64,000 bases of DNA from NCBI GenBank assembly GCA_046563655.1, contig CM102286.1, forward strand, positions 9,734,001-9,798,000. The letters run 5' to 3'. Made by a program: the position numbers and the translations under genes. This document shows positions 11,801 to 62,952 of the stretch, piece by piece (position 1 is the first letter of the stretch; every line of letters starts with the position of its first letter). The notes under the pieces are model-generated. The model was not told where the DNA came from, made no database searches, and worked only from the letters and a program-made list of their open reading frames with translations. The DNA comes from Yuukianura sp. NJ FZ-2021. Its lineage: Eukaryota.

Positions 11801-14800
11801 TGGCTGGCTGCTGAGGAACGAGAATCCTTTGTTTATAGAAAATCGTGCGCAGCCGTTATTCAAAGTTTTTGTTTTCAAGTTTTCGTTTTCACGAAAGAGG
11901 CAAACAGCTCCGTACTTTCGACTCATTATGTGGAAAAATGTGGATTTTGAAAATTAATTTTCTGTTTCATTCTCCAGTTTGAAAGGGAATTTAATTTTTA
12001 TTTACCAGCATTTTGCTCTGTTGAGTCAACTGAGCATTGTCCCATGCAATACGATTTCCTTGTTTGATGGCTTTTTTTCGCTTTTGTGTTTTCCCGCGCA
12101 CTTGTGCTGGTTACAGATGTGTGACTGCTATTTTCTCCAGTGGTTGCTCATAGCACTATCGTTGGTTCTGGAACTTTCTGGGCAATGGTAATGGTTGAGG
12201 ACGTTTTGGCAGACAGAATGGTTTTAAGCGAGCAACCAACTGGAAATTTAACAAAAACTATCAGTTAACAAAAGCTATAGCAGAGGCACCCTAATTCACG
12301 TCTCTCCATTGTTCTCAATGATGCTGGCTCCATTTCACCCGCATTGGTTATTTTAATGATGATAGTCGTCACAATCAACAGCCCCTGCTATTAGGAATAA
12401 TTCAGCAGTAACTTAACTAAACAGGCACCTTTATAGCTCGACGGAGAATGCGTTTTTTCTTGGAATTTTGTGAATAAAAGCTTCGCACGTTAAAGCGAAG
12501 AGAGTAAAAGAGAATTGAAATTTTTCTCTAGTCATTTATTCTAATTTTTTATTGAATTGTGAATCATGCGATATAAGACTTTCTTTGAAACGCTTTTTGT
12601 GTCAATTTCTAATTTAAGAAATGAAATATTGTTAATTTCAAACTTTATGTGAGTCACCGCCTACCGCATCTCGATCAATTCCGTAATGAGTTTTCGAATT
12701 GAGTTCTGTCATCTGTCAGGGAGCGAGCATTCTTTCTTAAAAATCAAAATCGGATAGCCCGCCATTTTATTTTCACCAGGCGTTAGACTGAATGCAACGC
12801 ACTGCGACAATTCTTGTAAACAGAATTCATGGAGCCATTTAAAAAAATGTTTTACAAAAAGTTTTGAGTGGTGCAGCAGTGGCGCCCTCGCTTCTCTTTT
12901 GTCTGCTTCTACTCTAGCTTTTACTTTGTATGTTTTCGAACACGCCCAGTATTACTTTTGCTGAAAACATTTTCATAATCAGCATTATGCACGTCTCGCT
13001 ATGGATTGGTTTTTCGTGTGTAAGTTTATGGATAACAACTTGGTCGAACTTTAATTTTAAAAGTTGTTCTGCTTTTGTAAGCACTAATAGCAATATAACA
13101 TAGGCTAAAAGATCGTTCCAGCATTCTAGTTCCAGCAACCAAGTTATTCAACATACATTTTGTCATCTATATTGTATTTTTATAAATTGATTTTTTTCTC
13201 GAAACGAGACTGGTATTTCCATCGTGTATCTATTCCGAACATGACTGTAGAATTTTTTTAAAAAATTTTATGTACGGGTTGAATAGACTTTTAGAACTTC
13301 CTCTTATGGGAATCCTGCGTACATTGTTCATGGAAGTGTACATTGAATGATCTGAGAACGCAACATTAAATGACACGACTTCCTTTCTCATGCCAAAAAC
13401 TTTGAGATTCGCCTATTGTGTAGGTTAATATCGTGCCGTGTCAGTCAATGGTGCGAGTTGTGCTGTCGAATTATTTCCGTCCATTTAAATACAATTAATA
13501 ATAGAGTTCACCAGTTCACCTCTCCTTTCAAAGGGAAACGAGTGAAGGAAACGATGGGAAGTGACGCCTATAGCTTACGCGTTGAGCCAAGCAACACATT
13601 CAATAGTTGTTTTTCTTTCATATTCTAGTATAACGTATATCAGAATTTTATTTTTAAAAAATAACAACGATAACAATTGTCTGGAACTGTAAAATTTAGT
13701 ACTTGACGTGGAAATACTGCGAATGACTGAATTCGTCTTCAATTAATCGTCTCAATAAAGGCGGTTTTCATCCGTTTCTGATATTTTTGTACTTATTGAA
13801 TGGTTAGCAGGGTTGAATTAAGGCTAGTGTTGTCTAGATCCGTTGCTTAAACGGTGTGGTGAATGTAATTTTAAAATTCACATAAACTCAATGTGGAAAA
13901 ATTTAACTTCACAGGTCCAATCATAAAACCTAAAATGGGGAATTGTGGTGTAAAGCTTTTCTGGCTATGATACTTTGTAAGTTGTGGTCGCATTTAGATC
14001 AGTCGGATCTTGTCAGACATATAAATAAAGCATGAGATTAGTTGTTGTCATTGTCAATACCATGCGTCAATGCTACTGATCCGGATTTGAGATTGCGGAT
14101 CAGAGACTTGTTAAGTTGAAAGGTCAGACGGAAATATGCCACTCGTATAAACTGTTAAAGATATTGTTTTGGTGGTGTGGAAATAAATCCATGGATGACC
14201 TTTAAACATTGAAAGCAGTACTTATCGAAGCACGCCATTACATCGAAAAAAAGACATCGAAGGAAAAGACATCGGAGAAAAAGACATCGAAAAGAAACAC
14301 ATCGAAAATACAAACACATCGAAAATATAAACACATCGAAACAAAAGACATCGAAATAAAAGACATCGAAAATGCAAACACATCGAAACAAAAGACATCG
14401 AAAACTACCCTCAGTCAGGCAAGCCTACGCACGCCGTCACTATTGCGTGCTATACCAAACCTAACGCCAAACCTAAAGTTTTCATTTTTAGACTAAAACT
14501 GAGCGCACAAATTTCGTTGGAATTTCCGCGCCGAAGGCGCGGCGTTAGGTTTGGTAAAGCACGCAATAGTGATTGCGTGCGTAGGTTTGGCTGACTGATG
14601 TTAGTTTTCGATGTCTTTTGTTTCGATGTGTTTGCATTTTCGATGTCTTTCTTTTCGATGTCTTTTGTTTCGATGTGTTTATATTTTCGATGTGTTTCTA
14701 CTTTCGATGTGTTTCTTTTCGATGTCTTTTTCTCCGATGTCTTTTTTTCGATGTAATGGCATGGACCCGTACTTATATGCATTTGACGTTGGCCTTTTCG

Positions 14801-24227: not shown

Positions 24228-27065
24228 TTAAGATGTGTTAAAAATATGGAGTAGCAATTCAAGGCCATCGTCCATCTGTTCTAACATCTTCAATTCCGAG
24301 GTACGCTGAGACTCGAGAAGGAATTTGAATAAAGTAGCACGTACTTTAGTTGGAAATGCGTTGGACAGCATTGGCCGAAGCTCGGTTGGTAAGGCCATGA
24401 TGTGCCTTGAAACCGTGGGAATGAAGGATCTCGGATGATACCGCTTACTGTCTACAACGTAAGTTCCGGATCGTGTTGACGTTGTGGTTGAGGAGTATGC
24501 CATAACTTCCTTCGTAATGTGTTGGAAATAAGGAACGTTGTTATGTGCGAAGTTTGAAAACGTGAGCAGACATTCCAGTAAGCTCATGTTGGGTGGAGTC
24601 AACCAATTTAGCACGGAGTTGACTTTGGCACGAACACAGTCTCGTTTGTGCATCTTGAAGATGAATCGGACGCTTCTTCTGAATATTTTGTTAATGTTAT
24701 TGAATATGGAGAGATTTGATTTTGACCATAATATAATCATGTACTTGAACACTGGGATAATGTAGGACATGATCATGAGTTTCCTGTTTTCTTCCGACAG
24801 GAGATCTTGTATAGGATAGAAGGACCATAAGATTGCATTACACTTTTTCGCAGTCGCCATGACGTGTTCCGACCAGGATAAGGTGTTATCCAATATTAAC
24901 CCAAGAGTCTTGAAAGATGTAACGCTGGTGATTATTTTGTCAGCAACTTTGAGTTTGATTTGACCAATGGTTTGCACTACTTTCTTCTTCCCCACCAGCA
25001 GCAGTTTGGTTTTGTCAATATTGAGGTCCAAGCGATTCATTTTCATCCACTGAGTGATTGAGTAAATGACAGCTTCAGCTTTCGCAATTAATTCTTGTAG
25101 TAATTGCGGGTCACCTCCAATGACGACATTATTGTCGTCGGCAAATAAAATTGTGAAAGCGTCCTCTATACAATAAGGTAGATCATTAATCATGATTGAG
25201 AATAAGAGGGGGCCTAAGATGGAGCCCTGTGGAACTAAGAGTATCGTTGGTTTAGATCGCGAGCTTTTTCCATTGATTTTGACGTTCTGAGATCTCGAGT
25301 TGAGGTATGATGCGAACCATGACGAAGAAACGTTGTACCATTTGAGTTTTTCGATAAGTATTCCTTTGTCCACAGAGTCGAATGCTTTCTTCAGATCAAG
25401 GGAAATTATAAGGCATATTTTTCCCTGGTGGAGGTGAGCGTAAACTTGTTCAGTTAATGCAAGCTGAGCAGTTGTAGTAGAATGGTTTTCTCTGAATCCA
25501 AATTGGTTCTTGTGTAAAAGAGAGTTTTGCTTGAGAAAGTTTTTCAGTTGATCGTGAGCAAATTTTTTGCACAATTTTGCAATAGTTGGTTGAAGTGAGA
25601 TGGGTCTTGTATCACACCGTAGTTGAGGTTGTTTTATTTTTGGAATTACCACGGAATGCTGGAGCGATGAAGGAAATATTCAACTGGAGAGACTTTGATT
25701 GATTAAATTTACAATGTGATTGCAAATATTCGGTGCTTGGATGCAGTGCGAAAGAATTCAATTTGACATTCCAAATTGATCTTTCGTTTTTTTTCAGTTT
25801 GGATTTGCCCTTCTTCCATGTTTTGATTAAGTCAGATGTGTTGATTTCTTTAAAGTTGAATTTTTGGTTCGGTGTAATAATTCCCCTTGGTTTGTTCGGA
25901 AGTTCAGTGGAGACAGTTTGGGGAGTTGTGATTGAAATAAAATAATCGTTGATTTCATCGGGCGAAAAGGCTAGAACCACATTTGATTTTTCAGCGTTTG
26001 GTCGAATTTGATTTATGGCTTTGTGTGGTCCAAGTTTTTTGATTGCAAGATTAAGAGAGTTCTTTCTGTCAATTTTCACATTATCTTTCACTTGCTTTTT
26101 TAAAGCCACTAAGTTTTCTTTCTGAACTAAGGACAAGTTCAACGAATTAATCAGTAAATCACGCTGGGTGTTGAGCGATTTTGTTTTCTCTGATAATTGG
26201 AGTGGTATCGTCCGTTGTGTTAATGAGATAGTCTTTGTTTGGATCGTGTCTGTGAAATTTTTGCAGATTTTGGAGACAAGTTCTTGAAATTGCAATTCTA
26301 AGTCTCCATTGTTTTTGTCAAATGAAGTAAACACACACTTTAGTCCAAATTCTTCGTAGTCGAAGTTTTTGTAGTCTTCATATTTGATTTTTACTTTGGG
26401 GAGTTTCGGCTTTTTAAGGGTGACCGTTACATGAGTTGAAAGATGGTCCGAAATGCCAGGATTAATGACTACTGTGCTTGTCACAATTTCTGGGCAATTG
26501 GTGAAGATAAGATCTAGTGTTGAGTTTCCCCTCGTTGGAGTAGTGATAAGTTGTTTAAAGATTGAAGTCGTTTGTTTAAAATTGGTTTGACAGTTATTTG
26601 GAATGTAGGTTGGGTTTAGGTTGAAATCACCAAGAACAAAACAACTTTTGTTGGTGATAGCAAGTGTGCTGAAAAGTTCGGTCATAGAGTTCAAATCAGC
26701 TTCGATTGCACCTGTGTTGTAGTTTGGAATCCTGTATGCACTAGACACGATTATAGACTTGTTTGATTTCAGTTGTATGACAGCACTAATGACTTCAAAG
26801 TTTCGGTTTTCAGATATCGAAGTTAACTTCAGCGAAAATTTTAAGGACAACCTAATAAGAATTCCGACACCCCCTTTAGATTGCCAAGAACGGTCATTGT
26901 GAATGAAGTTGTAGCCTTCTACGGTGCGTGGCGGATGTTTTTCGTTCAAATGAGTTTCTGAGATGCACAGGATATCAACGTCGTAAGTGTCGAGAAAAAA
27001 ATTTATTAGGTCACACTTCGAATTGAAATTACAGACGTTTAGACCAGCAATTTTTAGTTGATTGA
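24228..27065 (-). pseudogene. LINE ORF2: apurinic-like endonuclease plus reverse transcriptase, with a frameshift and stops near 25600-25800
   Basis: EN motifs LKIAGLNV, DILCISETHL, GGVGI, LGDFN, TRGNSTLDLIF, ISDH. RT motifs RPISL, QFGFR, DLKKAFDSV, VPQGSILGPLLF, FADD, LGLILD. Confidence 0.9.
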
Positions 27066-27934
27066 AGTAGCATGATAGGTGTGTGCAAGAACGTAAAACG
27101 TTCTAGTTTCGAAAGTTGAGTCATCGAAATAACTCAAACAAGAATGGAAGGTGAAGGTCCAAAGTATCTTTTCAAAGTTTTCAAATGACCTTGACGTTCT
27201 TGTATGATGTTGAAGATGCAAATTGCGCAACTAAGCAAATTCTAGATTTGTTTGATATAAATAAGGATGTGTTGAAAATTAGATTTGTACAGTTGAGTCA
27301 ACGCACTGATTGGTGTGTGCAAGAACGTAAAACGTTTTTCTTTCGAAAGTTGATTCATCGAAATAACTCAAACAAGAATGCAAGGTGAAGGTCCAAAGTA
27401 TTTGGAAGTTGAGTCATAGAATTAGGTCGTTAATAAGTCATATAAGAAGGTTAAGTTCAATGATGGCATTTTAATTTGGAAGTCTTATTTGGTACAAAGT
27501 CCGATCTGTTTTCAAAGACGAAGGTGACTCATACCTTACGTGCACACGCGTGAACAAAGTCCAAAATCGTTTTTGTGTGGTCCACAGTCCGACCCTTTTT
27601 CAAGGACGGTGGTGAGTCATGTCCTTAGGTGCACACGTGGGAACAAAGTCCAGAATCGTATGTTCATCGTCATTTCAATTTGTACTATTAATAGCCGACC
27701 CTACAATTAGGTATGCGTATTTGATGCACCCCACCATCTCAAAAGATCCTTACATTGCATTCCCAACCATCCCGCCCCATTGCATTATTTCGATGAGGGT
27801 TACGCGGCGGAAAAGGGTCAAGACACACCACGGCTTCAAGTATGAGTACGCTGATTTTAAAGATCCCCAGAACTCATATCGTTATATATGGGTATGTTTG
27901 TACCAGGGCGCAAAATAACCTTCAAGAGTAATTA

Positions 27935-28291
27935 ATGCCAGCAGAGATTCAAAACGACAGCAATGTTGCAAAATATTTACAATTAAATGGAGACAACATG
28001 ACAGATTGTGTTCAACTGACCAAGAGTATACTTGGCTTTTCTGTATATAAAAAAAACCAAATATTTTCTAATTTCGCTTCGATGTACCACTGGAGTACAG
28101 TATTACACACCACTACCACCACCAACATCATCACCACCACCACCACCACCACCACGACCACCACCACCTCCACGACCGCCACCACCACCACAATTCGTTA
28201 TAAACTTAGCGTTACCGAGATATTGTTCAGTTGCAAGGTTGTATCCGCAGAGTGCGAATGTGCTGCACTTAAGATAATACTAACCACCTAA
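27935..28291 (+). CDS. Possible small Thr-rich (mucin-like) cargo ORF
   Basis: ATG-initiated 118-aa ORF with a poly-Thr tract encoded by an (ACC)n repeat; could be non-coding. Confidence 0.25.
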   Translation: MPAEIQNDSNVAKYLQLNGDNMTDCVQLTKSILGFSVYKKNQIFSNFASMYHWSTVLHTTTTTNIITTTTTTTTTTTTSTTATTTTIRYKLSVTEILFSCKVVSAECECAALKIILTT

Positions 28292-28317
28292 CCTCTACAA
28301 TTTTTGTAATTTACGTC

Positions 28318-28842
28318 ATGAACGTGTACTGCGAAATTTGTGGCATTCCTTTTTCTCGAACGGACGCACTAAATCGACACCGTCGTACTGTTCATTCATC
28401 TGGGATGTCATCAGAAGTTTACGAAGATGTACCAAACTCAGATTCTGAGGAATCAGAGAATGATGACAGCATCTCGGACGCTGAATCGGAAGAGAGCAAA
28501 ACCGAAGCAATAATGAGCAAATCCAGCATATCATTGATCTTACATGCTCTACACAATGCCGATGTCGGGGCTCATCGACTCACTTTAGATGGTTTGCGAA
28601 CAATTGTGGAAGCCGTAGATGACGATGACGAGGACAATGAGGAAAGTGAAGGCTCAGAGAGCTATTCGGAGGCTGACGAAGATGACAACGAGATGCAATC
28701 GGACTCGTCGGATAAAGATCAAGAGTCAAAATTAAATTCAAATCAGTTGGAATACTTGATAGCAATTGTAAAAGCAGGAAAACGAAATGTAATTCGTTTG
28801 ACCAAGTCTGCGTTAATGAAAATTCTTGATGATATGTCATAA
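28318..28842 (+). CDS. C2H2 zinc-finger protein with acidic tracts (cargo of the Maverick-like element)
   Basis: CEICGIPFSRTDALNRHRRTVH is a canonical C2H2 finger; Asp/Glu/Ser-rich remainder; AATAAA at about 28914. Confidence 0.7.
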   Translation: MNVYCEICGIPFSRTDALNRHRRTVHSSGMSSEVYEDVPNSDSEESENDDSISDAESEESKTEAIMSKSSISLILHALHNADVGAHRLTLDGLRTIVEAVDDDDEDNEESEGSESYSEADEDDNEMQSDSSDKDQESKLNSNQLEYLIAIVKAGKRNVIRLTKSALMKILDDMS

Positions 28843-29187
28843 GTGTGCTCTCCGAGGCATTGAACATTGCAAAGGTGTCATACTATAAGTTATACGACAA
28901 ATTCAATCTTGTGAATAAATCTTTGTATTGAATTTATGATTTGGCCTTGTTAAATGTCTAATTAAGTAACAAGGCGTTCTTTTTAAATTTGGGAGAATAT
29001 TTTGCGTAAGCAGTGGAATTTCTGAGAATAGTCAACTGATCATATTTTATTTAAGAACGATAGGAAGTATACGTGTTGTAGTAAAAACTGTGAATGAGTA
29101 TATTCCATAGTGTAAGGTCACTCGCACTGTCAAGGCCTATTTAAAATGGGCTTCTCAACATTCTGAAAATATAAGATGTGCACTTTG

Positions 29188-29305
29188 AAACAAGGTAGGG
29201 CGATGCTCAAGGGTTGAGCGTTGGTCTTCTGGAGGTAGTTGGCAATTGATACGGCTTTTAACCGGCTGTCCGCAAACCCGTTCAAGAAAAACGTTAAGAA
29301 AAAGC
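29188..29305 (-). mobile_element. 3' end fragment of a Helentron/HINE-like family
   Basis: Reverse complement matches the ends at 61350-61477 and 62833-62952 (CTCCAGAAGAC plus GCTCAA-NNN-TTGAGC hairpin plus CCCTACCTTG). Confidence 0.6.
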
Positions 29306-29494
29306 AGTCAGGTGTTTAAATTTTGTAGGATTATGCCGTATTTATACATTTCCATGGCGCTCTTCTTTCTGTTATTTTTTATGCCTTCTTTTCCAAATAA
29401 GGAAAAGAATCACACTTTTCTTATACAAAACAAACAACGAAAGAAATTGCAATTACAAATGCCGTTCCTATGCCATTCCTTTTTGGGTACAAAC

Positions 29495-30080
29495 TTGGGT
29501 ATAAACACTACGTGCAACCTGGGTTTTAAACCCTGCGTGCATTTTTAAAATTGCAAGTAGGGTTTATACCCACGTTGCACGCAGGGTTTAAACCCAAGTT
29601 GCACGCAGGGTTTAAACCCAAGTTGCACGCAGGGTTTAAACCCAAGTTGCACGCAGGGTTTAAACCCAAGTTTTATGCAGGGTTAAAAACCCAAGTTATG
29701 CAGTGTCTACGTGGGTTTTAGACCCTGCGTGCATTTTTAAAATTGCAAGTAGGGTTTAAACCCACGTTGCACGCAGGGTTTTAGACCCTGCGTGCATTTT
29801 TAAAATTGCAAGTAGAGTTTAAACCCACGTTGCACGCAGGGTTTAAACCCAAGTTGCACGCAGGGTTTAAACCCAAGTTGCACGCAGGGTTTAAACCCAA
29901 GTTGCACGCAGGGTTTAAACCCAAGTTGCACGCAGGGTTTAAACCCAAGTTGCATGCAGGGTTAAAACCCAAGTTACGCAGTGTCTACGTGGGTTTTAGA
30001 CCCTGCGTGCATTTTTAAAATTGCAAGCAGGGTTTAAACCCAAGTTGCACGCAGGGTTTAAACCCACGTGGGTAGTAGGG
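29495..30080. repeat. 24-bp tandem array (GGGTTTAAACCCAAGTTGCACGCA), probably subterminal repeats of a CMC/EnSpm-like end
   Basis: Directly visible units containing the palindrome GGGTTTAAACCC; the array ends in GTGGGTAGTAGGG (CCCTACT terminus on the - strand). Confidence 0.85.
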
Positions 30081-30107
30081 ATTAACACCCCACGTCGCAT
30101 GTTGGGT

Positions 30108-30656
30108 TTAAAACCCACCATGGCAAAGCAGGGACCGCGGGCGCGCGTGTCCCTGCAACCACGAGGTTTTTAAAAAAAAAAAATTCTCATATATGGTTTC
30201 CCAAATTTGTTTTTTGACAATTTTTTTCCATCTTATAGAATCCTCATTTGTAGTAATTACGCTTCCCCGTTTTTGTAACCTATCCTTGATTGATGAAGAT
30301 TTGAGTGGATATGAGTCTATAGCTTTGTCATATTGTTTTGGAGATAAGGTTGGTGGTGTGCCAAATGTATTACATTCGTCATGCTCCTCTTCTTCCTCAT
30401 CCCTAACAATTTCAGAATCTCTTTCAAAAAGTGATGGAAGGGGTGTTGTTTTGTTCCCTAGTTCTAGTAACCTTAAAATTTTTCCTTGTACTACCAGCTT
30501 GCTTTTTGTTGGTATTTTTTTTTTCAAGAATTCTATGGACAGTTTGTTGTTGTGTTTGTAGTTATTCAAATTTACGCAAATGTTTATTAACTTCATTCGA
30601 TCCTGCTGGTACATTGAAAAGTAAATTTCGTTTTTTCTTTGCCCTAGGACGTACAT
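30108..30656 (-). CDS. Hypothetical cargo ORF (182 aa), possibly decayed
   Basis: ATG-initiated ORF inside the Maverick-like element; no recognised domain. Confidence 0.3.
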   Translation of the reverse strand: MYVLGQRKNEIYFSMYQQDRMKLINICVNLNNYKHNNKLSIEFLKKKIPTKSKLVVQGKILRLLELGNKTTPLPSLFERDSEIVRDEEEEEHDECNTFGTPPTLSPKQYDKAIDSYPLKSSSIKDRLQKRGSVITTNEDSIRWKKIVKKQIWETIYENFFFLKTSWLQGHARPRSLLCHGGF

Positions 30657-31213
30657 GATATTTCAAGAAAGGATCTGCTGATTATCAATTAAAATTTCCC
30701 AATTAAATCATTTACAAAATATACAAATCATTTACAAATCAAAATCATTACAAAAACAAAGCATAACACAAAGAAAAAACACTTCCATTTTTTAATATTG
30801 TACAACACGCGATACGGAGCTTATATTTTACGAAAATGATTTCAGAGAAACAATAGTTTGAAACATGAGGCAGGCATACAATGTTTTTTTTCCTGGCAGC
30901 CCACACGTCCCTCAAACAGCATGCTATAGTATCTACATCTATGTTCAAGTCACATCCTACTGCATGATATCATGTCAGCTTCCTCAACACGGATGGAATG
31001 TTGCGAAGTTCAAAGTAGACACTCTTTTCATACAGCCATGTATAGGATCGACACAAATTGATGTAGTCCCGATGAAGCAGCTTCAACTTCTTGTGGTTAG
31101 GTCTCGTAGTTAGCTCCACATAGTTTAAAACCTCAGCGTCCAACCCTTGATCCGTAACTGTGTAATATAGAAAATCCACAACATGGCATTTCTGTAATTA
31201 ACAATAGTATACT

Positions 31214-31612
31214 CAGTGTTGGCGGATATCCACTTTTTCGACATTTCATCCACGGCTGGATATCCAGTGGAAGAAATGGACGAAATGGATGAATCCAAAG
31301 GGGCGGAGCTTTGCCCTCTGAATTTGAATTAATTGACTACAAACAACTAAAAAACGTGAAAACACAGTTCAAAAACTATGTATATATCGTTTTTAAATAC
31401 GTTTTAAAAAATATATTAACTATAATCGCGAAAGTAAAGCTTTCTGATATCATTTCGTAAATTTAAATTTGAATTTGATTTGAATTTCGCGCAAAATTTG
31501 TGATTTCTTCCATCCACTTTTAGTTTCGTCCATTTGGGGTGCGTTTCTTCCAGTGGATATCCACTGGATGTGGCAATTTAGCCACTGGACGTTTAAGCGT
31601 CCACCAACACTG
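31214..31612. mobile_element. hAT-type MITE (399 bp)
   Basis: TIR CAGTGTTGG / CCAACACTG flanked by the 8-bp duplication AGTATACT (31206-31213 and 31613-31620). Confidence 0.85.
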
Positions 31613-31963
31613 AGTATACTACACACTCACATTACCTTGGTTTAAGATTCTTCAAAATATTAACAAGCTTGTTCGCCAAGTGAATATCAATGGAAAATGA
31701 TATACCAATTCAACAACTCCTGATTATACCAATCGGAACATCACAACAATATCTTCTTTTCAAAAAAAATGACACGAAATTTTAAGGATTTAAATTTAGA
31801 ACAGCTTTGAGTCAAGGCATTGCTTTTCTCTACGTATGCACAAAATCAGGGAATAGCCAGCTTGAGTTTATTCATTTTCAAGTATTTAAATTTGTATTGT
31901 GTTACAAAAAACTCACTAGCATGTGACAAATTGTCTCGCCAGGATTTCTCCAAGAACGGGTTA

Positions 31964-32533
31964 TCAAACATCATCGAAGCGAACCATGACGGAATCGGCA
32001 GATCGATATTTCGACGAATTTGGATACAAGTAGAATCGGTGTGAACTAGGGGTGGCACGAATTGGTCGCAGTTCCCACCAGCGCGCAAAATAGTTTCGTT
32101 GATAAGTTGTGAAGTACACAATCCCTTCGTAGAGACTGTATGCGTCCGTATTGCGCAACTCGGCGTCGACGTAGTCAGCGATGGCGCCGCACCGAAATCT
32201 TCCGAGCAGAGTAAAGAATCGTTCAACAAACATACCTCTGCAAATTCCGGAGAATTCTCGCCCTCTTGATACGAAGAGTGAGTGACACCAAATGCTGGAG
32301 TTACAGAACTCCTGAACGTCGAGGTGCCAGTGGTAGAAAACTGCGTCGAGGGTACATTGTTTGAATTCATTTAAATTAGCTTGGCTGACTGAGCCTGGTC
32401 GATCGATGGCAAAAAGAGCACGGGCGTAACAGTCGAGTCCACGTTGGCCTCCGGGGCTTAAGGCTTCCTCTCGTAGGTACACGCGAAGGTCTGCTACTTC
32501 GGTTGCGGCCAAGAGCGGTTGATGCCTACTCAT
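31964..32533 (-). CDS. Hypothetical cargo protein (189 aa)
   Basis: ATG-initiated GC-richer ORF with a TATAAA about 110 nt upstream; no recognised domain. Confidence 0.45.
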   Translation of the reverse strand: MSRHQPLLAATEVADLRVYLREEALSPGGQRGLDCYARALFAIDRPGSVSQANLNEFKQCTLDAVFYHWHLDVQEFCNSSIWCHSLFVSRGREFSGICRGMFVERFFTLLGRFRCGAIADYVDAELRNTDAYSLYEGIVYFTTYQRNYFARWWELRPIRATPSSHRFYLYPNSSKYRSADSVMVRFDDV

Positions 32534-33728
32534 ACCAACTGGACTGAACTGTGACGGTTAGGCTAGGACTTACACCTTATTATTATTATCCCAGGTCCGT
32601 GCGCCTAATTCACTAAGCTACAACTGGTAGGTAACGACCTTTATAGCCACCCCACTGTACGTACCCACGGTATTAGGTTAGGTTCCTCAAACAAACGTTC
32701 GTTGTACCTCCATATTGTTCATAAATCCCTCCATTTCGTTCCGAATGATGACTTCCCTCCCAGATTCGCAGGTTATATGCATATTATATTATGCATATTA
32801 TATTATGCATATTATATGCATATTATATTATGAATTTAATTCGTAATATAAACGATTAGTCACAACGGATCTGGGCTCCTACGCACCGTTTGCATTCAGT
32901 TCTTGAGGGCGCTTGTGTACATCATACAACATCATTCACATTTCAAGCCTTCCATGATTCAAAAAACTTTCAATTAAAAAAGCTTTCAATTCAAAAAGAA
33001 ATTTCCTTAGATACTGTTAAAATGAACAAAGCGAAAGCAAACCTGGAAACCGAACTTGAGTTTTCAGAGCTATCCTGACAAACCTGCTGGCCGTGGCACT
33101 ACACACTCGTAATATGTTCTTAATCTTCCCAGTAATTCCCTCGTAATATCTTCCTACTCTCCTCCTCCACATTGTTCCCACTCATGACTCGTTCTTAACC
33201 CCCTACTCTCATCCAACGGTTGTCGGGACTTGGTGGGTGGTGGGTGGTGGTGGTAGGTGGTGGGTGGTCGTCGTCGTGGTAGTGGTGGTGGCGGTGGGTG
33301 GGAGGTGGTGGTTCTGTTTGTGCGAAATTATTCAGCACACGACTGTAGGCAACCGACAGAAATTAGTACAATTTATTCAGTTGCAAACAGGAAAACGTTT
33401 TTTTTTTAAATGATGTAACTTTGTATATGCAATCAAAAATCCATTCCTCGTTTCACAATTCTTCACCGTCGAAAAAAAATTTATTCAGTTGTCAAAAAAA
33501 AAACTTTCTGAAACAAATAGAATTTTTTTTTAAAAGCGTTTGATCTTTCGTCGCAAAGTGCGTTGCGTGGCAAACACATTTGGCGAAATCCCAACGCATT
33601 TGCGCGGTCGGCCTTTTCGTCGCCTGGGAGGATCCGCTCCTGCAACATCCGCTCCCGTTCCCCCTGCTTTTAGTTGAATTGGGTTGTGGGAGGACTTGGG
33701 AAACTCAACACAAAATACCAACACTTGA

Positions 33729-34648
33729 CTAAGTATACACCCTTAATCTAATTAGTATAGGTTCTCGGCAAACTGCACAACTTCTTAATGACAATGAACA
33801 TGTAGGACAAGCAACCAAATGTTTACATGGCAAGAATACGTCACAGGCTTCTTTGTCCCAACAAATCTTACAAGTAATACTGTTGCCAGAGTCGTCTCTG
33901 GTAACACCAGAAACCAAAACGCCGGATGCCGCACTTGAAACATGTTCAGATGTCCCGGCAACATCAGTTCCACCCACACTGGGAATATCAGTTTCGAGGC
34001 TAGTTATTTCTGCCACGTAACGTGTTGCCGACCCGGCCAAATCGGCTCCTCCATCGCTGGGGATGTCGGTTTCAGGCGCGGTTCTTCCCGCGCCGGCCAT
34101 GTCGGTTTCGGGGGCGGCTGCTGCTGCGGCCATGTCGGTTCCTCTCGTCCCAGCACCGGCAACATCTATTCCCCTCTGCCCAGGGTCGGTGGAAACATCA
34201 GAAGCTACCGTGCCGGGCATACCGGTTCCTGTGGTCACATATTCGAAAACATCAATCCTCGCTGCTCCGGTCGCTTCGGCTCCGTGGGTCCCAGTGACAT
34301 CCGGAACGGTAACAAACCCAACCCCGGATAGTAGACCGGTCATGACTACAACATACGGACAGCGTGGGAAATGTTTCCGGTGCTCCAACAACGGCTCATC
34401 ACCAACCACCCATTCCCCCACGACACCCCGGCAATATGGACACGCAACCTGTTCAACAGAAAACAAATTATTCCAAATTTTTTACTTTTTTTTAGAAAAA
34501 GTTGAAAATTACCCACCTTGTCATCTACTCCGAGGTAGTAAAATCCCGCAAACGAACATGCTTCCGGGGCCACAAAATTCAATGGCCATCTTACTTGAGC
34601 GTTCTGAAACGTTTGTAATCTCCCCTCATAACTCATGAGGCCCTCCAT
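33729..34648 (-). CDS. iap: Inhibitor of apoptosis protein (one BIR plus C-terminal RING); exons 34648-34517 and 34448-33729, about 283 aa
   Basis: After removing a 68-nt GT..AG intron (34449-34516), the BIR reads RLQTF...WP...AGFYYLGVDDKVACPYC...W...DEPLLEHRKHFPRC. The RING reads CKICWDKEACDVFLPCKHLVACPTCSLSLRSCAVCREPI. Confidence 0.9.
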
Positions 34649-35041
34649 ATTCCTTTGACTGACTTCTCACAACTCAAGCGTTACTATATATATACATGCG
34701 CAAAACCTAATTGTAGGGTCGGCTATTAATAGTACAAATTGAAATGACGATGAACATACGATTCTGGACTTTGTTCCCCGACTCAACTGTACAAATCTAA
34801 TTTTCAACACATCCTTATTTATATCAAACAAATCTAGAATTTGCTTAGTTGCGCAATTTGCATCTTCAACATCATACAAGAACGTCAAGGTCATTTGAAA
34901 ACTTTGAAAAGATACTTTGGACCTTCACCTTCCATTCTTGTTTGAGTTATTTCGATGACTCAACTTTCGAAACTAGAACGTTTTACGTTCTTGCACACAC
35001 CTATCATGCTACTGATTGAGAGTGGTCGAGTTTCGTGATAG

Positions 35042-35836
35042 TCAGGCTGTATTTTGATTGGGTAGTGGAGCAGGAGGCGGAGAACGTCGAGTGAGGGTGC
35101 TGTTGCCAAATACAGCGGAAGTTTGATTCGGGTAAGTAGATGTGGCTTGTGAGTAAGATTGTTGTGAATTTTGAATCGATCCTGGATATGCATTCCGATT
35201 TTGGCGACGCGCTGCGAGTTTTTGCCTAGTTTGCAGGGGTAGATCTTGAGTGAGATTAAGGTGAGGATAAGCAGTTTTGATTATGTTACGGTTTTTCCAA
35301 ATCGTGTTCCTTGCTTCAAGTGATTTGAAAATCACTTTGACTGGCTTGCTGGAGTTTTGTGGAGTAGGACGACCCAGACGATAGTTGTCGTCGATGATCG
35401 GAAGATTTATCAGCGGCACAGCAAGTGAGAAGATTCTTTCAAGTTCATTTTTGACGGAATCAGCCGTTTCATTCTTTGTAATTTGAAGACCGTGAAGGAT
35501 TAAGTTGATTTTGTTGACGCTGATTTGGAGACGTTCAAGGTCGGAATCATGAGATTCAATTTGAGTAGACAGTGTTCTTTGAAAATCATCGGATGCATTC
35601 ATTCTTTGTTTGATAGTTGTTACTTCAGTGCTGAGTGATTGAATCTGTTATTTTCAGCATGAGCAATGAGTTATTTCAGCATGGTTGGTGTCCATCTTGT
35701 CATTCAGTGATTTGATCAAAGCAAGAACTGAAGAAATGCTAGGCTCTCCCATTTTGAGTGATTTTGTAGCCGGTGATTCTTCCTGTTGTGATTTCCTTTT
35801 CCTTCCTCGGGTCTTTGGTTCTTCAGTAGAGGTCAT
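35042..35836 (-). pseudogene. LINE ORF1 (coiled coil plus RRM/CTD, L1/CR1 ORF1 type), disrupted by a small duplication near 35648-35683
   Basis: NLILHGL...YRLGR...KPVKVIF...QDLPLQTR motif. Two ORF pieces separated by a duplicated CATGCTGAAA(A)TAAC. Confidence 0.8.
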
Positions 35837-39643: not shown

Positions 39644-41005
39644 GGAGTTCGATTCGAGACGTGAAACTGCTAAGACGTGTGTCACTAAGCTCTCTTTCTT
39701 TTGTCACAAGAAGTTATACCCTTACTAGGATTTAGACTCTTGTTTTTCCATTCGATCCCTAACTTATACAGTCCAGTCTCGCACAATGGAAATTGCGAAT
39801 TTTTGCTTTAGTTCACTAACGTCCTTACTCCAAAGCAACCAGTTTTCAAATTCGGAGCTATTGCACCTGAACCGGTTAAAAGACAAATTTGCGCAACGGC
39901 TCTCGGAAATTGTGACATTACAAAAACCCTGCGACAATCCCACTGTGATCATCCACGGATTACAAATTGAGCGAGTTTCTGTTTCAACCATTTCGGAATG
40001 GATTTTTGGACACTTAAAACTCCAAATTCAAATTCACTCCGTCCGTGTCTTCGGGAAAAAGAGAACAATTTCCGTGTCACTAATGTCAAATGCAGAAAAA
40101 GCAAAGTTATTCAGTCGATGTCATTTGCTTAAGGGATCAGCAATCGGAATCAGCGATGACTTACCACCTCATCAGAGAACGAAAAGTAAGTCCCAGAATG
40201 ACCACTCAGATGCCAAGCACGTGGAGAAAGTAGCAGTTTCATCTACAAATTCTATGTCCACAAGAAGTACTCCACCCGAGGTATTGTTTCACCCAACGGG
40301 AGAGGGAGAGCTCACCTCTCTCGTGGACAAACCGCAGCAGGTTATCCAGTCACAAATCCTCAATGAAAACCTTGACCCCAACCCAGGCGCTCCTTCAAAG
40401 TCTCCAACATCCGAAATTTTACATCAAGACGCCATTCAGCAAAACTCCACATCTCCACAAGAAGCAAGAAAGTCATCGAAGAGGTTTGTCGCTTCCCATG
40501 CAGATTCTCATCTTCCAAACTCTGCTCCCACGAAACATAACACCCTCACCACCAAACATCAGCAAATTCCAGTCACAAACTCAAGTCACAAGCAGCCCGA
40601 CCATCATGCACACAATGGAGGTCATACAGAACTCAACAAATTACATTCCTTCAAAGTAGCAGCAATTCAGGGCCGAGACGCCTTCAAAAAAGCAGTTGCT
40701 GAACATTATGGAGAAGTTAGTCATGAATCATTGGATCATCTCAACAAATCCCTTCTACAAGCGAAACTTGACGAAATGAAAGCAAAATTCAAAGAACGAA
40801 GAAGACGGAAATAAGTTCTATTAAATTTAAATACTTTCAACTTAACTCCTGTAATCAATCATTCCCCCAAATATGTTATCAGTTTGTACAGCCCCACACG
40901 TTAAACATTTGTTATTAGCTACATTTCAAACGAATCGAACTCCCTCTCCATGGGCTTCGGGCCCGCAGGGAGAGTAACATATAAATAAAAAAATAAAAAA
41001 AATAA
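39644..41005 (+). mobile_element. ORF1-only non-autonomous non-LTR retroposon (HAL1-like), copy 1
   Basis: 15-16-bp TSD AAAAGTTTGAATTCT(G), (TAAAAAA)n tail, 3' stem-loop, single ORF. Confidence 0.8.
39786..40814 (+). CDS. LINE ORF1-like protein (342 aa), copy 1
   Basis: VIIHGLQI...RVFGKKRTISVSL...LKGSAIGISDDLPPHQR aligns by eye with the LINE ORF1 in this window (LILHGLQI...RLGR...KPVKVIF...QDLPLQTR). Confidence 0.75.
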   Translation: MEIANFCFSSLTSLLQSNQFSNSELLHLNRLKDKFAQRLSEIVTLQKPCDNPTVIIHGLQIERVSVSTISEWIFGHLKLQIQIHSVRVFGKKRTISVSLMSNAEKAKLFSRCHLLKGSAIGISDDLPPHQRTKSKSQNDHSDAKHVEKVAVSSTNSMSTRSTPPEVLFHPTGEGELTSLVDKPQQVIQSQILNENLDPNPGAPSKSPTSEILHQDAIQQNSTSPQEARKSSKRFVASHADSHLPNSAPTKHNTLTTKHQQIPVTNSSHKQPDHHAHNGGHTELNKLHSFKVAAIQGRDAFKKAVAEHYGEVSHESLDHLNKSLLQAKLDEMKAKFKERRRRK

Positions 41006-49673: not shown

Positions 49674-51032
49674 GGAGTTCGATTCGAGACGTGAAACTGC
49701 TAAGACGTGTGTCACTAAGCTCTCTTTCTTTTGTCACAAGAAGTTATACCCTTACTAGGATTTAGACTCTTGTTTTTCCATTCGATCCCTAACTTATACA
49801 GTCCAGTCTCGCACAATGGAAATTGCGAATTTTTGCTTTAGTTCACTAACGTCCTTACTCCAAAGCAACCAGTTTTCAAATTCGGAGCTATTGCACCTGA
49901 ACCGGTTAAAAGACAAATTTGCGCAACGGCTCTCGGAAATTGTGACATTACAAAAACCCTGCGACAATCCCACTGTGATCATCCACGGATTACAAATTGA
50001 GCGAGTTTCTGTTTCAACCATTTCGGAATGGATTTTTGGACACTTAAAACTCCAAATTCAAATTCACTCCGTCCGTGTCTTCGGGAAAAAGAGAACAATT
50101 TCCGTGTCACTAATGTCAAATGCAGAAAAAGCAAAGTTATTCAGTCGATGTCATTTGCTTAAGGGATCAGCAATCGGAATCAGCGATGACTTACCACCTC
50201 ATCAGAGAACGAAAAGTAAGTCCCAGAATGACCACTCAGATGCCAAGCACGTGGAGAAAGTAGCAGTTTCATCTACAAATTCTATGTCCACAAGAAGTAC
50301 TCCACCCGAGGTATTGTTTCACCCAACGGGAGAGGGAGAGCTCACCTCTCTCGTGGACAAACCGCAGCAGGTTATCCAGTCACAAATCCTCAATGAAAAC
50401 CTTGACCCCAACCCAGGCGCTCCTTCAAAGTCTCCAACATCCGAAATTTTACATCAAGACGCCATTCAGCAAAACTCCACATCTCCACAAGAAGCAAGAA
50501 AGTCATCGAAGAGGTTTGTCGCTTCCCATGCAGATTCTCATCTTCCAAACTCTGCTCCCACGAAACATAACACCCTCACCACCAAACATCAGCAAATTCC
50601 AGTCACAAACTCAAGTCACAAGCAGCCCGACCATCATGCACACAATGGAGGTCATACAGAACTCAACAAATTACATTCCTTCAAAGTAGCAGCAATTCAG
50701 GGCCGAGACGCCTTCAAAAAAGCAGTTGCTGAACATTATGGAGAAGTTAGTCATGAATCATTGGATCATCTCAACAAATCCCTTCTACAAGCGAAACTTG
50801 ACGAAATGAAAGCAAAATTCAAAGAACGAAGAAGACGGAAATAAGTTCTATTAAATTTAAATACTTTCAACTTAACTCCTGTAATCAATCATTCCCCCAA
50901 ATATGTTATCAGTTTGTACAGCCCCACACGTTAAACATTTGTTATTAGCTACATTTCAAACGAATCGAACTCCCTCTCCATGGGCTTCGGGCCCGCAGGG
51001 AGAGTAACATATAAATAAAATAAAAAAATAAA
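49674..51032 (+). mobile_element. ORF1-only retroposon, copy 2 (ORF 49816-50844)
   Basis: Identical 342-aa ORF, same TSD and same position in the satellite unit as copy 1. Confidence 0.8.
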
Positions 51033-53522: not shown

Positions 53523-54885
53523 GGAGTTCGATTCGAGACGTGAAACTGCTAAGACGTGTGTCACTAAGCTCTCTTTCTTTTGTCACAAGAAGTTATACCC
53601 TTACTAGGATTTAGACTCTTGTTTTTCCATTCGATCCCTAACTTATACAGTCCAGTCTCGCACAATGGAAATTGCGAATTTTTGCTTTAGTTCACTAACG
53701 TCCTTACTCCAAAGCAACCAGTTTTCAAATTCGGAGCTATTGCACCTGAACCGGTTAAAAGACAAATTTGCGCAACGGCTCTCGGAAATTGTGACATTAC
53801 AAAAACCCTGCGACAATCCCACTGTGATCATCCACGGATTACAAATTGAGCGAGTTTCTGTTTCAACCATTTCGGAATGGATTTTTGGACACTTAAAACT
53901 CCAAATTCAAATTCACTCCGTCCGTGTCTTCGGGAAAAAGAGAACAATTTCCGTGTCACTAATGTCAAATGCAGAAAAAGCAAAGTTATTCAGTCGATGT
54001 CATTTGCTTAAGGGATCAGCAATCGGAATCAGCGATGACTTACCACCTCATCAGAGAACGAAAAGTAAGTCCCAGAATGACCACTCAGATGCCAAGCACG
54101 TGGAGAAAGTAGCAGTTTCATCTACAAATTCTATGTCCACAAGAAGTACTCCACCCGAGGTATTGTTTCACCCAACGGGAGAGGGAGAGCTCACCTCTCT
54201 CGTGGACAAACCGCAGCAGGTTATCCAGTCACAAATCCTCAATGAAAACCTTGACCCCAACCCAGGCGCTCCTTCAAAGTCTCCAACATCCGAAATTTTA
54301 CATCAAGACGCCATTCAGCAAAACTCCACATCTCCACAAGAAGCAAGAAAGTCATCGAAGAGGTTTGTCGCTTCCCATGCAGATTCTCATCTTCCAAACT
54401 CTGCTCCCACGAAACATAACACCCTCACCACCAAACATCAGCAAATTCCAGTCACAAACTCAAGTCACAAGCAGCCCGACCATCATGCACACAATGGAGG
54501 TCATACAGAACTCAACAAATTACATTCCTTCAAAGTAGCAGCAATTCAGGGCCGAGACGCCTTCAAAAAAGCAGTTGCTGAACATTATGGAGAAGTTAGT
54601 CATGAATCATTGGATCATCTCAACAAATCCCTTCTACAAGCGAAACTTGACGAAATGAAAGCAAAATTCAAAGAACGAAGAAGACGGAAATAAGTTCTAT
54701 TAAATTTAAATACTTTCAACTTAACTCCTGTAATCAATCATTCCCCCAAATATGTTATCAGTTTGTACAGCCCCACACGTTAAACATTTGTTATTAGCTA
54801 CATTTCAAACGAATCGAACTCCCTCTCCATGGGCTTCGGGCCCGCAGGGAGAGTAACATATAAATAAAAAAATAAAAAAAATAAA
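53523..54885 (+). mobile_element. ORF1-only retroposon, copy 3 (ORF 53665-54693)
   Basis: Identical 342-aa ORF, same TSD and same position as copy 1. Confidence 0.8.
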
Positions 54886-57134: not shown

Positions 57135-58478
57135 CTATGGAAGAGCAGGCGTCTCACGTTCCCCCTTCCGATGGATGGCGTTCCAGTCGAACCACGGGCG
57201 ACATCCAACTGCGAAACCCCTAGGCGACTGCTCCTCCAGAATCTCGGCAACTCCGTCACCGTCATCATCATCATCATCATCATGGACATCAGCGGAGTCT
57301 TCATCATGGTAATCGTCAACCGCAGCATCGGATTCCTCCCTGATGGTCCAGCACGTCACACTTTTCACTTTCACTAATTTCTTCAAAATAAGTTCTTGTG
57401 GCAACCAATCATAAGCACTTGGTTTCAGCCACATTTCGAACATGATTGGAGCCCATAAATGGACTCCACTGCAATTGCATTTCCACAAACATTCGACTCC
57501 ACTTTTCGTCACTTTCCGGGACAGTGAGACCCTCAACCGTCGAAATTGTAGAAAATGAGCAATACTTTTAATTAAACACATAACTTCACTGAATTTTACA
57601 TTTCTGCACTGCAACCAATTCTGAGTTTCTCCTTCCATCACTTTACGGGACAGTGAGACCCTGAACGACTCAGAACTTGGCGCAGACTGAACTTCACAAA
57701 TCAACAATCTTTTTTCCAATAATTTCACATAATCACACTGACACTCACTTTTTAAATTGTCATTTCTCGAATTTTTAGGGAATACGACCCTTTTTGCACA
57801 GAATAGCACCGCAGCACTATTAACTTCACATTTTGAAGCTAGAGGAACGCCGCACTTCAGCATCGTGGCCGGGCTAACGTTCTCTGGAGCGATGTCGGAA
57901 GATTGAGGCCTCGTTCCCGCACATCTCTCTTTTTGAAGGATCCCGCAGTCTCCTCCATTTCCATTTTTCATAAAATTTTTCACAACACTTTTCACTTCAC
58001 ATTTCACTTCCTTGATCCTCGGAATTTGGAGACACAGTACCGCCAGTGCACTTAGCCGAATACTGCCTCCGGGAGAGTCCTGGTCGCAACCATAATCTTC
58101 ATCATCTGACGTCACCGGAGTCCACGAAAACGCGTCCGCTTCCATGTACTGCCAGCCAGCCAGAGGCACTCTCCATATCTTAATTTCCGGATTCATCAAT
58201 TCTCTTTTCCTCATCACTACCACCACATTCCACCAACACAATATGTACAATGGATTGGAGCCGCTAAAACGCGACTCCTGAGGCACTAACACTAATTTCA
58301 ACTGTACAGACACTTGCACCTTCTTAATAATGAGTGCGTGACAACACTCAACATGAAAAATAAACACAAAATTTAACTTATAACTTGAAGCACTGACAAG
58401 TTCACTATGTTCGTCCAAAAATTGAATTATGATTTGGGAAATGATGGACGAAACGTCATTCCCCACTTTTAGTTTAAA
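57135..58478 (-). CDS. Degenerate pol-derived ORF in the -1 frame relative to gag
   Basis: About 447 open codons after a T TTA AAC slippery site. Only vestigial resemblance to protease (FLDEHS), RNase H end (EADAFSWTPV) and integrase; no YxDD motif. Confidence 0.55.
   Translation of the reverse strand, partial: FKLKVGNDVSSIISQIIIQFLDEHSELVSASSYKLNFVFIFHVECCHALIIKKVQVSVQLKLVLVPQESRFSGSNPLYILCWWNVVVVMRKRELMNPEIKIWRVPLAGWQYMEADAFSWTPVTSDDEDYGCDQDSPGGSIRLSALAVLCLQIPRIKEVKCEVKSVVKNFMKNGNGGDCGILQKERCAGTRPQSSDIAPENVSPATMLKCGVPLASKCEVNSAAVLFCAKRVVFPKNSRNDNLKSECQCDYVKLLEKRLLICEVQSAPSSESFRVSLSRKVMEGETQNWLQCRNVKFSEVMCLIKSIAHFLQFRRLRVSLSRKVTKSGVECLWKCNCSGVHLWAPIMFEMWLKPSAYDWLPQELILKKLVKVKSVTCWTIREESDAAVDDYHDEDSADVHDDDDDDDGDGVAEILEEQSPRGFAVGCRPWFDWNAIHRKGERETPALP
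58436..58478 (-). promoter_or_regulatory. -1 programmed ribosomal frameshift signal
   Basis: Heptamer UUUAAAC in the gag frame just before UAA, 7-nt spacer, 9-bp stem GGGGAAUGA/UCAUUUCCC. Confidence 0.8.
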
Positions 58479-61338: not shown

Positions 61339-61477
61339 AGTTACAGCTTCAGTTACATGAAAACGGTTTCTCAATTCGTCCATAGTTTTGCGGTAGGCCG
61401 GTCTAAATGTCGTATCAATTGTCAACTCCCTCCTGAAGACCTATGCTCAACACTTGAGCATCGTCCTACCTTGTTTT
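61339..61477 (+). mobile_element. 3' end of a Helentron/HINE-like element directly joined to the 248-bp array
   Basis: CTCCTGAAGAC subTIR, ATGCTCAA-CAC-TTGAGCAT hairpin, then a T-rich end. Confidence 0.6.
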
Positions 61478-61619
61478 AAATTTGATTTGTCTTTTGAATT
61501 TCGCCCTAAATTTTTGATTTCTTTCATGCGCTAATAGTTTCGTCTAGTTGGGGCACATTTCTTCCAGTGGAAGTGGCAATTTAACCAATGTATCTACGTT
61601 TAAGCATACAGCAACACTG
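61478..61619. mobile_element. Diverged right half of the hAT MITE family seen at 31214-31612
   Basis: Colinear similarity (TGAATTTCGC...TAGTTTCGTC...CTTCCAGTGG...GTGGCAATTTA...CAACACTG). Confidence 0.6.
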
Positions 61620-62832: not shown

Positions 62833-62952
62833 TGAAAACGGTTTCTTAACGTTTTTACTGCGTTTGCGGACAGCCGGTTGAAGAACCGTATCAATTGCCA
62901 ACTCCCTCCAGAAGACCTATGCTCAACCCTTGAGCATCGCCCTACCTTTTGT
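62833..62952 (+). mobile_element. Second Helentron/HINE-like 3' end
   Basis: CTCCAGAAGAC plus ATGCTCAA-CCC-TTGAGCAT hairpin plus CCCTACCTTTT. Confidence 0.6.

Follow-up and report, generated by a model that had tools for sequence, protein, structure and literature searches.

Background

What kind of mobile element carries an intact inhibitor-of-apoptosis (IAP) gene between long terminal inverted repeats (TIRs), in a body with no recognisable gene for its own replication, integration or packaging? The question is raised by a 7,948-bp unit at positions 27066-35013 of a 64,000-nt stretch of DNA from Yuukianura sp. NJ FZ-2021 (GenBank assembly GCA_046563655.1, contig CM102286.1, forward-strand positions 9,734,001 to 9,798,000), which was analysed as a whole and is referred to below as the window; all coordinates are counted from its first letter. 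Mavericks/Polintons, the group with which a first-pass annotation of the window had associated the unit, are now regarded as viruses that have integrated and that carry host genes from one species to another. We read the unit as a mobile element whose ends are of the Maverick/Polinton type and which most likely arose by deletion from an IAP-carrying (adintovirus-like) Maverick, and put the probability of this reading at roughly 0.55. The comparisons with described elements draw on the available portions of PMC8097293, PMC10045372, PMC8502044, and PMC5499653, and statements taken from these sources hold for those portions.

Boundaries of the element and its target site

The unit is a single insertion bounded by TIRs and a target-site duplication (TSD), and its termini read AGTAGC on the left and GCTACT on the right. 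The two ends are composed as follows:

27060-27065: left copy of the TSD, GATTGA, 6 bp, read from the flank sequence
27066-27299, plus strand: outer block of the left TIR, 234 nt, 100% complementary to 34780-35013, starting with 5'-AGTAGC
27300-27638: extra block of 339 bp that interrupts the left TIR and has no counterpart in the right arm
27639-27720, plus strand: inner block of the left TIR, with 74 nt at 100% (27639-27712 versus 34705-34778)
34696-35013, minus strand: right TIR, one continuous repeat of ~318 nt, ending with GCTACT-3'
35014-35019: right copy of the TSD, GATTGA, 6 bp, a perfect match to the left copy

The whole ~318-nt pairing consists of 234 perfectly matched nt and a remainder with one indel; in a sensitive self-comparison the inner pairing stretched to 27720/34696 (83 nt at 96%, against 34778-34696). 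Across 308 aligned positions the arms show zero differences, and this perfect identity suggests that the integration was recent. The 28-nt end sequence occurs in the window at two sites only, namely the two ends, with 0 expected from 100 shuffles, and the TIR end pattern was found in none of the viral_contigs, metagenome_contigs, and genome_contigs collections. Within the extra block of the left arm, 27307-27401 repeats 27073-27167 at 94%, and a tandem array of 1.9 copies of an 88-bp unit (27490-27659) begins there. The AG...CT ends, the TIR of several hundred bp and the perfect 6-bp TSD described in the first-pass annotation were thus all confirmed.

The element lies inside a long interspersed nuclear element (LINE), two open reading frames (ORFs) of which flank it:

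24231-27065, minus strand: LINE ORF2 with endonuclease and reverse transcriptase (Pfam Exo_endo_phos and RVT_1)
35045-35647, minus strand: LINE ORF1-like ORF of 201 aa, read by eye and without a Pfam match

Both flanks therefore belong to one LINE and share its strand, one being the ORF1-like part and the other the endonuclease/reverse transcriptase part. When the element and one copy of the hexamer were removed in silico, the junction of the resulting empty site came to lie between the two LINE ORFs, at a distance of 7 codons upstream from the ORF2 frame. As the element and its TSD lie between parts of one LINE, the 7,948 bp entered this LINE as a single unit with a 6-bp duplication. The best matches of the LINE reverse transcriptase are merely 30-39% identical, and the named ones come from cnidarians and fish. 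Four DNA sequencing runs share words with the stretch, three of them from one sample (0.78, 0.54, and 0.50) and the fourth from another organism (0.16); no RNA run containing it was found.

Alternative readings of the repeats and flanks were also considered. The TSD of hAT elements is 8 bp long and that of MULE/Mutator-type elements 8-10 bp. None of the TSD registers of hAT, Mutator, P, Transib, piggyBac, and Tc1 fits the flanks; for an 8-bp (hAT) or 8-10-bp (Mutator-type) duplication, the 8-bp flanks differ (TTGATTGA versus GATTGAGA) and match only in the 6-bp register. A pair of long terminal repeats (LTRs) was excluded, the repeats being inverted rather than direct. Among inverted repeats of at least 60 nt that are unrelated to the element, the window holds just one, a foldback at 14264-14745, with arms of 205 nt that are 95% complementary and 72 nt apart and that are made of short internal repeats.

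Fit of the ends to Mavericks/Polintons

Intact vertebrate Mavericks have a 6-bp TSD, TIRs of 46-1447 bp and a length of 12.7-24.6 kb, and their end motifs are 5'-(AGT)2//(ACT)2-3', the commonest, or (AG)3//(CT)3 (PMC8097293, available portion); 6 bp is likewise given as the characteristic TSD length of Polintons (PMC10045372, available portion). The element matches these descriptions in its 6-bp TSD and in a TIR of 234 to ~318 nt, inside the range of 46-1447 bp, and its ends (AGTAGC...GCTACT) agree at each side with five of the six positions of (AGT)2//(ACT)2, a motif published for vertebrates. The earlier statement that such an end structure and TSD length typify Mavericks/Polintons therefore fits the hallmarks published in these two sources.

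Absence of core genes

A total of 111 ORFs of at least 40 aa overlap the element. Of these, 77 were scanned against Pfam at E ≤ 0.1, and ten larger ORFs were scanned separately. The 34 ORFs outside the set of 77 belong to the LINE ORF (1), the satellite (10), the (TGG)n tract (4), and the IAP gene, right TIR and flank (19), and three of them were covered by the separate scan of the larger ORFs. In these two sets (77 and ten ORFs), no Pfam match was obtained to a protein-primed polymerase B (pPolB; DNA_pol_B-type), an rve integrase, an adenain-like protease or an FtsK/A32-type packaging ATPase; the same was true of the major and minor capsid proteins, families for which Pfam coverage is possibly poor. 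A DDE transposase was not matched by any of the 77 ORFs either, and Rfam and tRNA scans of 26500-35600 gave no match. The longest ORF in the element has 250 aa, which is not enough for an intact core gene, the major capsid protein included. The first-pass annotation, which had recognised no pPolB, integrase, packaging ATPase, protease or capsid ORF, was borne out on this point.

The IAP gene

Next to the right TIR, and read inward from it on the minus strand, lies a gene for an IAP of 283 aa with one BIR and one C-terminal RING domain:

34658-34694, minus strand: IAP core promoter, TATATATATA followed by an initiator-like TCAGT, adjoining the inner edge of the right TIR
34648-34517, minus strand: exon 1, 44 codons with the ATG at 34648, encoding the N-terminal half of the BIR (Pfam BIR positions 1-37)
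34516-34449, minus strand: intron of 68 nt, GT...AG, phase 0, within the BIR
34448-33729, minus strand: exon 2, 239 codons and the stop (33731-33729), with Pfam BIR positions 35-69

Exon 2 supplies the other, C-terminal half of the BIR; an Ala/Gly/Thr-rich linker follows, in which (P/L)ETD motifs recur, and then the C-terminal RING. When the spliced BIR was aligned with its 12 best homologues, 11 of the alignments ran without a gap over the exon junction, at an identity of 50-57%. The RING was assigned to Pfam zf-C3HC4_3 (E 2e-11). Among solved structures the best match was the BIR3-RING of cIAP1 (3t6p, E 1.5e-15), and the RING structures of cIAP1, cIAP2, and XIAP matched at E 1e-11 to 1e-6. 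Read by eye in the translation, the ligands of both domains are complete (C-x2-C-x16-H-x6-C in the BIR and C3HC4 in the RING). The two Pfam halves, the GT-AG borders and the ungapped junctions in 11 of 12 alignments confirm that the IAP gene is intact and spliceable with an intron at 34449-34516, as had been proposed from a first inspection.

Five x-T-D-[MIV] units are present in the linker (33950-34190, minus strand; translation read by eye), three of which are PETD or LETD, units that we take to resemble initiator-caspase cleavage motifs. Judging from this sequence likeness, the linker might serve as a caspase bait.

Origin of the IAP

Relatives of the protein number 3,687 at E ≤ 0.001 in a full HMMER scan; the best of them are 40-51% identical over the matched stretches, with identities of up to 62% in the RING of the best cellular matches. 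No close relative was found by a word-indexed search or in metagenome_contigs. When the 20 best relatives were looked up, 13 carried an organism name; all 13 are animals and none is viral. Eleven of the named relatives are ecdysozoans (ticks, spider, mite, horseshoe crab, centipede, springtail, three insects, and tardigrade) and the other two lophotrochozoans; the matches thereby hint at an ecdysozoan host. At least two BIR-like stretches are present in 149 of the 150 best library matches, whereas the element IAP has one, which most resembles the next-to-last BIR of its multi-BIR relatives.

Viral IAPs were drawn from IMG/VR, in which 60 IAP loci were found. Most belong to genomes of 100-160 kb, which from their size may be baculovirus-like. 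Of the approximately ten IAP contigs shorter than 51 kb, four were examined; they contain giant-virus genes, with neither pPolB nor rve. On a contig of 18.8 kb (locus L030, 9764-10363), a single-BIR and RING protein of 200 aa is encoded among many ankyrin-repeat genes, in giant-virus-like surroundings. The BIR of the element scored 94 bits (54% identity) against its best cellular match and 78 bits (43%) against the best IMG/VR locus. An IAP tree with library and IMG/VR viral rows, a comparison already suggested by the first-pass annotation, was run in quick form (178 rows by 123 columns, short matches having led to the removal of 2 of the 37 viral and 8 of the 150 library rows); it placed the element IAP in a clade of seven rows with a support of 84 and without viral rows. 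Because its named relatives are animals, its cellular score is the higher one, and its clade in the tree holds no viruses, the gene looks like a cellular IAP, probably an ecdysozoan one, that was captured as genomic DNA. The link to insect DNA viruses such as baculoviruses, drawn in the first-pass annotation, was accordingly overstated: in both the bit scores and the tree, this IAP stands closer to cellular ecdysozoan IAPs than to those of the large DNA viruses in IMG/VR.

Other genes and repeats inside the element

The remainder of the element holds a second gene, orphan ORFs and several kinds of repeats:

28015-28049, minus strand: third TATA-N-TCAGT site, directed towards the left TIR, back to back with the C2H2 promoter and followed by no clear gene
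28108-28191: (CAC)n microsatellite, ~1.0 kb from the left end
28199-28231, plus strand: C2H2 core promoter, TATAAA and an initiator-like TCAGT, 87-119 nt upstream of the ATG
28318-28842, plus strand: C2H2 zinc-finger gene of 174 aa, without intron and with one finger (Pfam zf-C2H2, E 1.2e-5)
29184-29301: dispersed-repeat fragment, with copies at 61387-61480 and 62842-62948
29483-30118: satellite of 24-bp units with the palindromic core GGGTTTAAACCC, in arrays of both orientations
30111-30656, minus strand: Lys-rich orphan ORF, 182 aa from the first ATG, the 3' end of which reaches into the satellite
31205-31621: nested MITE (miniature inverted-repeat transposable element) of Tc1/mariner-like type, ~417 bp long with 22-bp TIRs, flanked by TA and with ends that resemble Tc1 ends
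31849-32533, minus strand: pair of orphan ORFs that overlap, each in its own frame, at 31967-32533 (189 aa from the ATG) and 31849-32370 (174 aa)
33231-33312: (TGG)n microsatellite, inverted relative to (CAC)n, ~1.7 kb from the right end

The C2H2 and IAP genes each read inward from their own end of the element. In the C2H2 protein the finger is followed by acidic Ser/Asp/Glu-rich tracts, and an AATAAA lies at 28914, 71 nt beyond the stop codon. Both genes are preceded by the same kind of promoter, in which TCAGT, which resembles the arthropod initiator, follows a TATA box; in the IAP gene it ends 10 nt upstream of the ATG. The pattern TATAWA-N18-28-TCAGT occurs at three sites on both strands of the window versus 0.77 expected; all three lie within the element, and two of them immediately precede the start codons of the C2H2 and IAP genes.

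Six ORFs of at least 170 aa were seen in the element, versus 0.057 expected from block shuffles. For the orphan ORFs and the C2H2 protein, no Pfam family besides the zinc finger, no usable match in the protein atlas and no relatives in viral_contigs were found, and their exact sequences are missing from a collection of 15 billion proteins. No homologue of the 189-aa ORF was found, and its AlphaFold model has a mean pLDDT of 42.4, with no confident fold. The overlapping ORFs at 31849-32533 may be one frameshifted gene, or one of the two may be the real frame. The C2H2 protein and the orphan ORFs listed in the first-pass annotation are thus present, the former with a Pfam match and the latter longer than chance would give.

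The satellite arrays make many internal inverted repeats, and a partial relative of the MITE is found at 61475-61619. Beyond the TIRs, only the two microsatellites matched between the halves of the element in a self-comparison. The GC content is 44% in the IAP part by the right TIR and 36-41% in the rest of the element.

Other features of the window

Three identical ORFs of 361 aa (39729-40814, 49759-50844, and 53608-54693) have no Pfam family and are LINE-ORF1-like by eye; their identity suggests that a block several kb long was recently triplicated, in tandem or segmentally. An ORF of 416 aa on the minus strand (58469-59719), with a CCHC knuckle near its end, is LTR-retrotransposon Gag-like and has no Pfam match at E ≤ 0.001. 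A further ORF of 218 aa (2250-2903) gave a weak match to a NosD-type (beta-helix) Pfam family (E 2.2e-5), the only non-transposon domain outside the element among 28 ORFs.

Discussion

How could such an element have come about and moved? As a deletion derivative, it would have kept both terminal repeats together with the adjoining cargo and accessory regions, and would have lost the whole core, i.e., the genes for the protein-primed polymerase B, the rve integrase, the protease, the packaging ATPase and the capsid. Recognition of the AGT-type ends would have fallen to an rve-type integrase, which would also have cut the target with a stagger of 6 bp. Since the element encodes no integrase, this enzyme, along with any protein-primed replication, would have been supplied by an autonomous relative in the same nucleus; alternatively, the deletion may have arisen during the replication of the parent, just before integration. 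If expressed, the IAP could use its BIR to bind caspases or IAP antagonists and its RING to ubiquitylate, and by analogy with cellular DIAP1-type and viral IAPs it may damp apoptosis.

Several points weigh against a derivation from Mavericks. The link to them is structural alone, a resemblance and not a homology: neither the 77 scanned ORFs nor the orphan ORFs showed homology to a Maverick, at the protein or the DNA level, and the TIR end was missing from the three contig collections. The end motif agrees at five of six positions, not at six, and the motifs used for comparison come from vertebrates. The left repeat arm has its 339-bp asymmetry, just one copy of the element is present within the 64-kb window, and an interior of satellite and nested MITE would fit any old non-coding stuffer DNA. 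Polintons by definition encode pPolB and integrase (PMC5499653, available portion); an element without both fails this definition and can therefore be called only a putative derivative. Moreover, non-autonomous Polintons or Mavericks were nearly absent, by exact phrase, from the searchable literature, where the use found concerns Tlr1, so that such derivatives are poorly documented.

The best surviving alternative is a non-autonomous cut-and-paste transposon of a different superfamily, perhaps an undescribed one, with a 6-bp TSD, which would have captured a host IAP and a C2H2 gene in a Pack-MULE-like manner, would depend on a DDE transposase encoded outside it and would not descend from a virus. 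We consider it possible, if doubtful. It would account for an element that contains no Maverick gene or remnant, for an IAP closest to cellular animal IAPs (all 13 named relatives among the 20 best, 94 versus 78 bits, and the seven-row clade) that has a spliceosomal intron and a host-type promoter, and for an interior full of host repeats. A 6-bp TSD is, in addition, not exclusive to Mavericks, being also the usual one of IS3EU/GingerRoot; these known 6-bp families, however, end in TA..TA or occasionally TG..CA, not in AG..CT (PMC10045372, available portion), and Ginger termini are TGTNR (PMC2836005). Registers of other lengths, such as the 8 bp of hAT, fail at the flanks, the reiteration of AGT at the ends is a published Maverick signature (PMC8097293, available portion), and host-like cargo with introns is equally expected of Mavericks, as the nematode elements illustrate (bioRxiv 2022.07.12.499685).

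A more far-reaching version of the Maverick derivation takes the element for a satellite, still live, of an autonomous Maverick or adintovirus, with a helper that would replicate, integrate and possibly package the core-less mini-genome, while a working IAP and a C2H2 regulator are retained. Both genes would be kept because blocked host-cell death helps the pair of helper and satellite, and an anti-apoptotic gene could in this way be ferried between genomes or species. We regard this version as unlikely.

Quite improbable, in our judgement, is a full-length Maverick that integrated here and lost its core later in place, in which case the core-less form would never have been mobile and would be a dead remnant that shuttles no genes. 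One deletion between accessory regions near the ends would give exactly the observed layout, without gene fragments; 96% of vertebrate Maverick loci are degraded (PMC8097293, available portion), and a single copy is seen in the window. The identity of the TIR arms over 308 positions, on the other hand, speaks for a young insertion, which leaves little time for the loss of ~8 kb or more and for the other interior changes, and both genes and their promoters are intact, although neither point is decisive. It is very improbable that the assembly is at fault here or that two repeat copies happen to pair around ordinary host DNA: the region is indeed very repeat-rich and the DNA runs containing the stretch derive from a single sample, possibly the one used for the assembly, but the perfect repeats stop exactly at a perfect 6-bp duplication (chance of ~1 in 4,096 for the hexamer alone) and the flanks, both on one strand, are neighbouring parts of one LINE.

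If the element is indeed a recent, core-less one with Maverick-type ends and two intact, promoter-equipped genes, virus-like elements would spawn parasites of their own, in parallel to the MITEs that derive from cut-and-paste transposons and to the satellites that derive from viruses, and a cargo that inhibits cell death could persist and spread without a viral core. Should it instead prove a dead remnant, or a member of another transposon family, it would be an ordinary, if tidy, gene-carrying transposon.

Comparison with known systems

Pack-MULEs have long TIRs around host-derived genes and no transposase, and usually carry gene fragments; the element differs from them in its TSD (6 bp versus the 8-10 bp of MULEs) and in retaining two whole genes with promoters. 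With IS3EU/GingerRoot (Kojima 2023, PMC10045372, available portion) it shares the 6-bp TSD, whereas its ends are AG..CT and not TA..TA or TG..CA, and none of its scanned ORFs matched a DDE transposase.

Among IAPs, the cellular DIAP1/BIRC7-type proteins of arthropods and other protostomes are alike, in that the best matches are of this type (50-57% in the BIR and up to 62% in the RING); the element IAP differs from them in its one BIR, its repeat-bearing Ala/Gly/Thr linker and its mobile setting between TIRs. The IAPs of large DNA viruses (the 60 IMG/VR loci) share the BIR and the C-terminal RING, and the L030 protein also the single-BIR and RING layout, but they are more distant in the BIR, and they are encoded by genomes of 100-160 kb or by fragments with giant-virus genes.

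In adintoviruses (Starrett et al. 2021, PMC8502044, available portion), the accessory genes include IAP and Bcl2 homologues, and two of the supplementary maps bear an IAP label, so an IAP in such an element has a precedent, the likeness being one of description only; an adintovirus genome is complete, with one module for replication and one for the virion, and the element has neither. Nematode Mavericks have a region of 2-5 kb and higher GC content beside one TIR, with intron-bearing genes read as host-derived cargo (bioRxiv 2022.07.12.499685). Since Maverick cargo, intron-bearing cargo by a TIR, and adintovirus IAPs have all been described, the element is not a new category, and the novelty that the first-pass annotation saw in its cargo was overstated. 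Mavericks, those of nematodes included, are among its close structural counterparts (Barreat & Katzourakis 2021, PMC8097293, available portion; Widen et al.): they differ in having core genes, in their length (12.7-24.6 kb in vertebrates versus 7.9 kb) and in the end hexamer (AGTAGT versus AGTAGC), and they share with the element the 6-bp TSD, the long TIRs, five of the six positions of the AGT-type end motif and, in the nematode elements, an intron-bearing cargo gene of higher GC content just inside one TIR.

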